IMG/VR virus record: IMGVR_UViG_3300005467_000006
Span: 1 to 43,226 of that record
Length of the DNA stretch: 43,226 nt
DNA from: a virus
Direction: 5' to 3' (one strand)
In this document: one piece after another, positions 42,532 to 43,226 of the stretch
Position numbering within the stretch: the stretch's first letter is position 1
Layout of the letters: each line of letters opens with the position of its first letter
Position numbers and translations under genes: made by a program
Notes under the pieces: generated by a model
The model's database searches: none
What the model was told of the DNA's origin: nothing
What the model saw: the letters and a program-made list of their open reading frames with translations, nothing else

Positions 42532-42870
42532 GTGAAGAAAGAGAACGAGACCAACTCCGACAAGAAGACGAGCGAGCGCAACGGACGCCCGGTCGTCGTC
42601 ACCACCGAGCATCGCGGCGTGTTCTTCGGCTACGCGACGCCCACTGAGCTCGCGCGCACCGACAAACAGATCGCGCTGACGAACGCACGCAACTGCCTCT
42701 ACTGGTCGGCCGCAATGCAAGGCTTCATCGGCCTCGCGAACATCGGGCCCGACAAGGACTGCAAGATCGGACCGGTCGCGCACGAGCTCACGCTTTTCGA
42801 TGTAACCAGCATCGTCGCCTGCACGCCCGGCGCGGCCGACAAGTGGGAGAGCGCTGGCTTCGGCCGGTGA
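42532..42870 (+). CDS. Hypothetical early protein (112 aa)
   Basis: GTG start inferred. A conserved-looking core VVVTTEHRGVFFGY...ARNCLYWS...GFIGLA...GP recalls a phage-associated DUF, unverified. Confidence 0.55.
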   Translation: MKKENETNSDKKTSERNGRPVVVTTEHRGVFFGYATPTELARTDKQIALTNARNCLYWSAAMQGFIGLANIGPDKDCKIGPVAHELTLFDVTSIVACTPGAADKWESAGFGR

Positions 42871-43226
42871 TCGTCATGCACCCGATCGAAGTGATCCGCG
42901 GCGCACCGCCGATCGAGCTCGACACACTGTCCGGCTCCGGCTCCGGCTCCGGCTCCGGCTACGGCTCCGGCTCCGGCTCCGGCTCCGGCTCCGGCTACGG
43001 CTACGGCGACGGCTACGGCTACGGCTCCGGCTCCGGCTCCGGCTACGGCTCCGGCGACGGCTCCGGCGACGGCGACGGCGACGGCTCCGGCTACGGCTCC
43101 GGCTACGGCGACGGCTACGGCGACGGCTACGGCTCCGGCTACGGCTACGGCGACGGCTACGGCTCCGGCTACGGCGACGGCTACGGCTCCGGCTACGGCT
43201 ACGGCTACGGCTCCGGCTACGGCTAC
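42867..43226 (+). CDS. 5' part of Gly-X dipeptide-repeat protein: ~20-aa leader then S(G-Y/S/D)x49 (3'-partial in window)
   Basis: GTG 42867 overlaps the upstream stop (GTGA); alternative ATG at 42876. The frame is open to the window end, and the frame matches 2..514 if the 25-nt termini are overlaid. Confidence 0.75.
   Translation, partial: MIVMHPIEVIRGAPPIELDTLSGSGSGSGSGYGSGSGSGSGSGYGYGDGYGYGSGSGSGYGSGDGSGDGDGDGSGYGSGYGDGYGDGYGSGYGYGDGYGSGYGDGYGSGYGYGYGSGYGY
42930..43226 (+). repeat. Tandem 6-nt array GGC-TAC / GGC-TCC / GGC-GAC (49 units) running off the right edge
   Basis: Read directly. Confidence 0.95.

Follow-up and report, generated by a model that had tools for sequence, protein, structure and literature searches.

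Low-complexity tracts built on short repeats are known from several well-described systems. The staphylococcal ClfA/Sdr proteins carry Ser-Asp dipeptide repeats that are encoded by short in-frame DNA units and are polymorphic in length between strains; these proteins are secreted and wall-anchored (signal peptide, LPXTG), and their repeats are glycosylated and contain neither Gly nor Tyr. The Gly-Ala repeat of EBNA1 from Epstein-Barr virus reaches up to hundreds of residues and varies in length between isolates; it is irregular, comprises no residues other than Gly and Ala, and has the eukaryotic proteasome and translation as its targets. In silk fibroin (GAGAGS/GAGAGY), every second residue is Gly, while FUS-family proteins have a S/Y/G/Q-rich, uncharged domain, and in SmD1/D3 (Gly-Arg repeats) and Acinetobacter Hfq (Gly-rich C-terminus) an Sm-type barrel is coupled to a Gly-rich region of variable length. 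Here, we describe a gene that belongs to none of these systems. It is found in the virus record IMGVR_UViG_3300005467_000006, positions 1 to 43,226 (hereafter the window, meaning the whole 43,226-nt stretch of DNA that was analyzed), which is a temperate phage genome of 66% GC. The gene encodes a short leader, an uninterrupted tract of Gly-X dipeptides in which X is only Tyr, Ser, or Asp, and a C-terminal domain (C-domain). Gene linkage in related viral contigs shows it to be, as judged from sequence comparison, the second gene of a portable and widespread two-gene phage cassette, the first gene of which encodes a DUF6948 protein.

The two ends of the window are the halves of one gene, which, once these ends are joined, runs from an ATG at 42876 to a stop codon at 514. 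The cassette comprises the following features:

42532-42870, + strand: DUF6948 gene, 112 aa from a GTG at 42532 (Pfam DUF6948, PF22253, E 2.9e-21)
42876-42932, + strand: start codon and 19-aa leader, MHPIEVIRGAPPIELDTLS (from translation)
42933-43226, + strand: 5' part of the Gly-X array, 49 hexamers GGC-(TCC/TAC/GAC), reaching the end of the window
2-181, + strand: 3' part of the Gly-X array, 30 hexamers; the first four units, with 1 further nt, are identical to the final 25 nt of the window
182-514, + strand: C-terminal folded domain, 110 aa (WLAIARSH...AELDCRL), and stop codon; DUF7666-like

Tandem Repeats Finder reports a period of 6 at both ends. The last 25 nt of the window are identical to its first 25 nt, and this overlap falls inside the repeat. 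Joining the ends on it keeps the frame and yields an open reading frame (ORF) of 279 aa, consisting of the 19-aa leader, 75 units, and the 110-aa C-domain; an alternative start, a GTG at 42867, overlaps the DUF6948 stop codon as GTGA. The joined array contains 32 GGCTCC, 31 GGCTAC, and 12 GGCGAC hexamers, that is, 32 Ser, 31 Tyr, and 12 Asp units, with no other unit and no interruption. A first-pass annotation of this DNA had described an uninterrupted tract of 49 plus 30 units made from three 6-nt units, which we confirm, its total of about 75 resting on the overlap of the ends. Across the whole window, four consecutive GGCNNC hexamers are matched 73 times versus 0 expected, and never outside the arrays. 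No higher-order periodicity of unit types was found in the array except for a weak lag-2 signal, and the order of the units is near random. The period of the tract is two residues (6 nt); the triplet Gly-X-Y period of collagen-like phage proteins was not found, nor were Pfam pentapeptide repeats detected in the window protein.

The number of units depends on the assembly. The 25-nt overlap is shorter than the usual assembler k, and from the unit frequencies we estimate a chance of about 3% for a four-unit suffix/prefix match inside such an array. A separate MEGAHIT assembly of the same phage, an ENA k141 contig, corresponds to positions 76-42996 of the window, without a mismatch in the 3,636 bp that were compared; it, too, stops inside the array at both ends. 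Because the count rests on a 25-nt overlap within the repeat and both assemblies break there, 75 units is an estimate, and the true number would be at least 79 if the overlap is spurious. That the two window ends belong to one gene is independently supported by P0027, a protein encoded on a syntenic 54-kb mine-tailings contig, since there the same leader and a 72%-identical C-domain are found in a single ORF; the gene order on that contig is ParB, HTH_3, DUF6948, Gly-X gene, DnaB, RusA. A single frame holds leader, tract, and domain, both in the window and across more than 100 relatives, whose GC contents range from 41 to 69%. Just upstream of the starts of several relatives, the protein translations read GGE or GGRE, which would fit a GGAGG-type ribosome binding site. 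Taken together, these data show that the Gly-X gene is a real protein-coding gene.

The tract consists of 50% Gly and 8% Asp, is devoid of aliphatic residues, and has a net charge of −12 and 30 [G/S]Y[G/S] motifs in 150 residues. Like the ClfA/Sdr repeats, it is a long, length-variable low-complexity dipeptide repeat made from short in-frame units; unlike them, it is part of a protein without a signal peptide that is encoded among early genes. With EBNA1 it shares the character of a virus-encoded Gly-rich run of variable length, but the phage tract is a strict dipeptide repeat, whereas that of EBNA1 has no Tyr, no Asp, and no partner gene. The Gly at every second position and the presence of Ser and Tyr among the alternating residues recall silk fibroin; in silk, however, X is mostly Ala and never Asp, the product is an extracellular fiber, and in the phage family the alternation is not conserved. 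The [G/S]Y[G/S] motifs, the Gly/Ser spacers, the regularly spaced Tyr residues, and an attached folded domain are also features of FUS-family domains, as the first-pass annotation had pointed out for the motifs. The likeness is only a compositional analogy: in contrast to the uncharged FUS domain, the phage tract is acidic, lacks Gln, and is half Gly. It also differs in its strict dipeptide period from 6-nt slippage and its prokaryotic-viral origin.

In the window, the DUF6948 gene lies directly upstream of the repeat gene and abuts it. The first-pass annotation, although right in its description of the repeat gene and in its numbers, had overlooked this partner at 42532-42870 as well as the conserved leader motif and the dependence of the unit count on the assembly. 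The protein scores 75.8 bits against a Pfam DUF6948 gathering cut-off of 27, and all 28 aligned homologues also match Pfam DUF6948; gene callers lengthen the ORF upstream to 169 aa. We compared the window's neighboring proteins by tblastn with 65 IMG/VR loci that contain C-domain relatives. DUF6948 was found directly upstream of the tract gene in 41 of the 41 loci with enough upstream sequence, always in the same orientation as this gene, whose start it abuts or overlaps. No other neighbor was conserved among the 65 loci, either in the tblastn comparison or in an all-versus-all clustering of flanking ORFs.

The linkage also holds in the opposite direction. IMG/VR contains 381 DUF6948 loci, and we tallied the downstream genes in the best 80 of them. 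A Gly-X tract gene was located directly downstream in 76, comprising 37 with a C-domain, 19 in which the contig ends within the tract, and 20 with a tract and no C-domain. Three of the remaining four loci end less than 200 nt past DUF6948; the other, with 213 nt left, has neither tract nor C-domain. The 20 tract genes without a C-domain keep the usual leader, and several have short tails, such as QDVVQ, QDIVS, or EDVIQ; this subfamily includes L086, L098, L119, L140, L157, L159, and about 14 more. Contrary to expectation, there was no DUF6948 call upstream in the three loci with enough context in which the C-domain is fused to pentapeptide repeats, and for one of these three the upstream neighbor showed no similarity when compared directly with DUF6948. 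By these co-occurrences, DUF6948 travels with the module of leader and tract and not with the C-domain, and this pattern gives the strongest hint at a function of the tract itself. The C-domain is thus optional, being absent from 20 of the 80 DUF6948-linked tract genes, and this weakens the earlier suggestion that the tract merely tethers it.

An AlphaFold2 (AF2) model of DUF6948, with a predicted local distance difference test score (pLDDT) of 87, shows five strands and flanking helices. The model has the small, bent, five-stranded β-barrel by which Sm, LSm, and Hfq proteins are defined, and 50 of the 50 PDB matches listed by Foldseek are Sm/LSm chains with probabilities of 0.99-1.0. We therefore predict DUF6948 to be an Sm-like small β-barrel of about 100 aa. 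A sequence-profile search of the PDB with DUF6948 gave nothing relevant, and a Pfam scan of 28 DUF6948 members at E ≤ 1 returned only DUF6948 itself, DUF7778 (four members), and P22_Cro (one member). Like SmD1/D3 and Hfq, the phage system would join a predicted Sm-like barrel to a Gly-rich tract, here by tight gene linkage; in contrast to those proteins, barrel and tract are separate polypeptides, and the tract, instead of being basic, is acidic and aromatic. The predicted fold, typical of RNA-binding proteins, also adds to the likeness with the FUS family. Charge complementarity between DUF6948 and the tract was considered as well, but DUF6948 is only mildly basic (median tail charge +1), and we draw no such claim.

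The C-domain is modeled with confidence by AF2 (pLDDT 92) as a pair of helices and a sheet that contains a long hairpin, in agreement with the first-pass annotation, which had assumed a folded C-terminal part reminiscent of a phage-associated domain of unknown function. A Foldseek search with these 110 aa indeed retrieved such proteins: the top matches in BFVD include several DUF7666 (PF24703) proteins with a probability of 1.0, template modeling (TM) scores of 0.55-0.63, and E values of 4e-4 to 4e-3. Other best matches in BFVD were a phage protein annotated as 'Pentapeptide' and giant-virus ankyrin-repeat proteins. No relative of solved structure was found, either by Foldseek or by a sequence-profile search of the PDB. 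The window protein does not match Pfam DUF7666 at E ≤ 1 and hence lies outside the gathering threshold; among its relatives, 2 of 15 match at E ≤ 1 (best 0.04) and 11 of 105 at E ≤ 0.1 (best 5e-4), all below threshold. On the basis of the shared fold of the model, the C-domain is best described as a distant DUF7666-like domain, though not a member by the Pfam criterion. DUF7666 is a phage, giant-virus, and bacterial domain that is often fused to ankyrin or pentapeptide repeats, and the C-domain is likewise joined to repeat modules. In the window protein, however, the repeat module is an N-terminal Gly-X tract, and the domain has a signature of its own, GPL..C..ALHAT..P..W.GERLW.VAL.GE...DK.GALKREILAE. 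Across the family, the invariant signature is GPL..LHAT..G.R.W.V.L.G...K.GAL.R.I..E; the window protein has Ala in place of the family's near-invariant Cys, which speaks against a catalytic role for this residue. Pfam, PHROGs, PADLOC, and NCBIfam gave only low-complexity noise for the repeat protein and C-domain (TrAA12, BChl_A, Cas11, all with E > 0.01).

The C-domain has 16 close metagenomic homologues, and a search of 1.84 billion proteins yielded 273 representative clusters at E ≤ 1e-3. The usual homologue is built like the window protein, from a short leader, a Gly-X tract, and the C-domain. In most relatives, including those without a C-domain, the leader carries a motif of two hydrophobic residues followed by R/F/H, G, any residue, L/I/V, P, any residue, and W. 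X is mostly Tyr, Ser, and Asp, and rarely Asn, Phe, Ala, or Thr. Among 166 representative proteins, 79 have an N-terminal Gly-rich tract, 47 consist of the domain alone or are fragments, 7 have another long N- or C-terminal region, and in 33, according to a pattern rule, the C-domain is N-terminal and is followed by pentapeptide repeats; Pfam finds pentapeptide repeats in 38 of 105 scanned members that carry the C-domain in another architecture. An extra domain of about 80 aa with a recurring 'GAC.EA..W' motif precedes the tract in L085, L151, L158, L159, and P0024.

The tract ranges from about 5 to 74 units in the 65 IMG/VR loci (GC 41-69%), the window's 75 being at the top of the range; many of these lengths are lower bounds, as 27 of the 65 ORFs run off the contig end inside the tract. 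Contigs that end in a Gly-X array include L003, L006, L007, L011, L013, and L016, in addition to many DUF6948 loci. Among the cultured phages of INPHARED, no match was found by tblastn of the C-domain or by megablast of 20 kb of the window. In 185,579 species genomes, only five contigs from metagenome-assembled genomes (MAGs) contained a relative: two from Bryobacterales and one each from Pseudolabrys, Limnocylindrales, and a Saccharibacteria bin. One of the Bryobacterales contigs (L076) has a complete tract gene with DUF6948 upstream. The other Bryobacterales sequence (L079, OZ252030.1) carries a prophage copy of the cassette at 2.27 Mb of an 8.5-Mb MAG chromosome, which suggests Acidobacteriota as hosts. 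In this copy DUF6948 is intact, and the C-domain of the tract gene has stops or frameshifts, reflecting either decay or sequencing error. Our literature search found nothing relevant on DUF7666, DUF6948, or Gly-X repeat peptides; the first-pass annotation, too, had known of no described function.

The arrays of the 65 loci reveal how the tract varies. Each array uses a single Gly codon throughout (GGC, GGG, or GGT), and all X codons of one array end in the same base, which is C nearly everywhere and T in L007 and L029. Ser is encoded by TCC (639 times), TCT (28), or TCG (3), and never by AGC or AGT, whereas all synonymous codons occur in the C-domains of these genes. Variation between units is confined to hexamer positions 4 and 5, and units at the edges of the array are degenerate. 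Two near-identical phages, L037 and L038, are 99.7% identical over 9.4 kb, and their 5 mismatches and 24 gapped bases are all confined to the array, where they correspond to indels of one and three units and to unit swaps at hexamer positions 4-5; a second pair, L056 and L057, has 15 and 21 units, respectively. These patterns point to a tract in which whole 6-nt units are gained, lost, and exchanged over time, through replication slippage or unequal recombination. Turnover of whole units would account for length changes that stay in frame, for the frozen synonymous positions, and for the hypervariable length, which the first-pass annotation had thought plausible and which the range among relatives bears out.

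Tyr, Ser, and Asp account for 830, 670, and 493 of 2,158 units and occur in similar proportions in every lineage; other one-step neighbors of TAC (Phe, Cys, His) are rare in or absent from the tally, and Asn is minor. Since turnover alone would homogenize an array, the recurrence of these proportions implies that selection keeps the mixed composition of Gly with Tyr, Ser, and Asp. Relatives depart from strict Gly-X alternation: the tract of P0027, the closest relative, is of a GGGGY type, and those of others are interrupted by SY or SS insertions. In P0126 and P0144, an (Ala-X)n tract, with X being Tyr, Asn, Asp, Phe, or Thr, replaces (Gly-X)n before the same C-domain, a period of two residues being kept without Gly. 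Frameshifts within the array are seen in L040 (positions 1-220), where the array is read in an Ala-Thr/Ala-Pro frame relative to the C-domain, and in L124, where the ORF downstream of DUF6948 switches from the Gly-X to an Arg-Leu frame; these are either assembly errors or real out-of-frame variants. In L061 and L063, a second tandem array with 12-nt units is located at 1860-2267, about 3.3 kb upstream of the Gly-X cassette. In the sole stop-free frame on the strand of the cassette genes it reads S-V-[W/G/R/S]-[D/A], and it may be another low-complexity repeat gene.

The reading that we favor, if tentatively, is that the tract is a disordered, acidic, Tyr-rich, multivalent chain that acts with an Sm-like partner in an accessory early module. 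The tract would then be the functional core and not a passive linker: it would be intrinsically disordered and acidic and, through about 30 Gly-Tyr-Gly 'stickers', would offer many weak, equivalent binding sites. A DUF6948 oligomer would work together with it and may dock either the N-terminal motif or the tract itself, a DUF7666-like head, where present, could give a second binding specificity, and the number of units would tune valency or reach. The cassette as a whole might serve in host takeover, anti-defence, or the sequestration of RNA or protein; since the pair alone is conserved and every other neighbor changes, we propose an accessory module instead of a core component of replication. 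Disorder is favored over a silk-like fold because strict alternation is not conserved in the relatives, and it is in line with the near-random order of the units and with a composition of half Gly, no aliphatic residues, and a net charge of −12.

Several observations weigh against this proposal. The putative interaction between DUF6948 and the tract is deduced from gene linkage only. The acidity of the tract (8% Asp here and about 11% family-wide) speaks against simple FUS-like homotypic condensation, and the Ala-X tracts of P0126 and P0144 keep a period of two residues, which hints that period-2 structure may matter. The Sm-like matches were obtained with a predicted model and have modest TM scores of 0.40-0.66 and Foldseek E values of 2e-3 to 2e-2, and there is no sequence-level Sm or Hfq signal among 28 DUF6948 members in Pfam at E ≤ 1. 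In addition, the C-domain has no match in Pfam, PHROGs, NCBIfam, or PADLOC, and DUF6948 has none in PHROGs, NCBIfam, or PADLOC. A bolder version, in which the Sm-like DUF6948 and the hypervariable Gly-Tyr/Ser/Asp protein of soil phages form an early multivalent complex or condensate, possibly with RNA, is in our judgment distinctly unlikely. If true, it would be a prokaryotic-viral counterpart of the eukaryotic ribonucleoprotein granules formed by Sm/LSm proteins with low-complexity tails, and the length of the tract and its Tyr/Asp content would be a fast-evolving tuning knob in the arms race between host and phage.

We regard it as unlikely that the tract is a passive spacer, that is, a flexible, soluble, entropic tether of arbitrary length like the ClfA/Sdr stalk, in which Tyr, Ser, and Asp are merely tolerated as one-step neighbors of a founder codon. 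An unconstrained length of about 5 to 74 units, the near-random unit order, X codons that are mostly single-base neighbors of TAC, and conserved elements at both ends (the leader, and the domain or a QDVVQ-type tail) are what such a spacer would look like. A neutral linker should, however, drift to Ser, Asn, or Ala, whereas Tyr is the commonest X (38%) in all lineages; His, Phe, Cys, and other one-step neighbors of TAC are rare or absent, the composition is conserved across GC contents of 41-69%, and DUF6948 co-occurs with the tract even where the C-domain is missing. The latter variants also bear on an improbable alternative in which the tract stalls or slips AAA+ proteases or unfoldases such as ClpXP and Lon and thereby protects the protein or releases a C-terminal fragment or the tract. 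Gly-rich tracts are known to affect ATP-dependent proteases, as the EBNA1 Gly-Ala repeat does for the proteasome, and here a long Gly-rich run is placed directly N-terminal to a domain predicted to be stably folded. The variants without a C-domain, however, have no folded domain to protect, no degron was identified, and stalling would explain neither the requirement for Tyr and Asp nor the obligate DUF6948 partner. About as improbable is an ordered periodic structure, either silk-like antiparallel β-sheets or a β-solenoid, with Gly on one face and Tyr, Ser, and Asp on the other, giving rise to a fiber, gel, or rod. The alternation is perfect over 150 residues in the window protein, two relatives keep the period of 2 with Ala instead of Gly, and a rod would parallel the pentapeptide-repeat β-helix of the architecture in which the C-domain is fused to such repeats (33 of 166 representatives by the pattern rule, 38 of 105 scanned members by Pfam). 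Perfect period 2 is, however, expected from 6-nt slippage anyway, the alternation is broken in P0027 (GGGGY type), P0013, L002, and L030, and an Asp at every fifth to eighth X would charge a sheet face.

Two further explanations concern the DNA itself. The array could be an assembly artifact or a DNA element, such as origin iterons or a recombination hot spot, that is open in one frame by chance. Consistent with this, neither assembly of the phage reads through the array, 27 of 65 related contigs stop within theirs, and the replication genes lie just downstream of it. We nevertheless consider this very improbable: wherever both assemblies cover the array, their bases are identical, the Bryobacterales MAG contig L076 has a complete gene with DUF6948 upstream, and leader and domain are always in the Gly-X frame. 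Moreover, the amino-acid pattern is kept even though the DNA unit differs from locus to locus (GGC/GGG/GGT; NNC/NNT), and the lack of conservation of flanking genes besides DUF6948 argues against a fixed relation to an origin. The single-stranded DNA of the array folds less well than shuffled sequences (z = +2.8), and we rejected DNA secondary structure as driver or function of the array. Finally, the NNC codons could be the footprint of adenine mutagenesis of a (GGC AAC)n template by a diversity-generating retroelement (DGR). Like DGR variable regions, the arrays vary only at the first two bases of NNC (or NNT) codons, and some relatives are rich in Asn (AAC). X is dominated by three residues, however, as opposed to the broad spectrum of DGRs, and the degenerate edge units are as expected of slippage arrays. 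We found no reverse transcriptase among the Pfam-scanned window ORFs and no second GGCNNC array in the window that could serve as template, and rejected this extremely improbable origin.

With respect to kind, the Gly-X protein may be grouped with hypervariable in-frame low-complexity repeat proteins, with a smaller chance that the pairing of an Sm-like protein with a Tyr/Gly tract represents a new phage system. Provided that the cassette has a function, for which its strict gene linkage and its conserved composition speak, it would be a common, uncharacterised early module of uncultured, mostly soil-associated temperate phages, with a low-complexity tract at its core that is masked by annotation pipelines and broken by short-read assemblers. 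It would offer a genetically tractable system for Tyr/Gly 'sticker-spacer' tracts in bacteria and phages, natural variants of length and composition being at hand. There is also a practical consequence: terminal-overlap tests, by which viral genomes are called circular or complete, can be set off by the repeat itself, and protein catalogues systematically contain the gene in truncated form.

The repeat gene sits in the early rightward region of the genome, flanked by the following genes:

41791-41982, + strand: cro-like HTH_3 regulator, upstream of the cassette (Pfam HTH_3, E 6e-20)
1769-3163, + strand: DnaB-type replicative helicase, downstream of the cassette (Pfam DnaB_C, E 1.4e-48; DnaB, E 5e-25)

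The early position between a cro-like gene and replication genes, as given by the first-pass annotation, is therefore correct, and the phage is temperate. Two unknown ORFs (511-813 and 813-1769) lie between the repeat gene and DnaB, and the cro-like gene is not kept beside the cassette in other phages. In the syntenic tailings phage (L066, 10186-12216), DnaB contains an intein/homing-endonuclease insertion (Hom_end_hint, LAGLIDADG_3), which the DnaB of the window lacks. Among the other genes identified in the window are those for the large terminase, a tail-fibre protein with an S74 chaperone domain, a large serine recombinase, a ParB-like protein, a Dam-like methylase, and RusA. An IS1595-family transposase (DDE_Tnp_IS1595 and a zinc ribbon; 39814-40842, + strand) is located in the early region between small ORFs and the cro-like gene, and related copies are present in L020 and L036. 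The phage also encodes a GroES co-chaperonin (6178-6483, + strand; NCBIfam E 4e-28). An imperfect GAC/GAA-rich tandem repeat at 14120-14295 gives a protein of 405 aa with coiled-coil appearance (ORF 13913-15130, + strand) a poly-acidic stretch, DDDDEDLDDADDADDADEVVDEDD..., close to its N-terminus. This ORF lies between two unannotated ORFs, one of 613 aa (12015-13856) and one of 402 aa (15262-16470), and judged by its position it is possibly a scaffolding protein.

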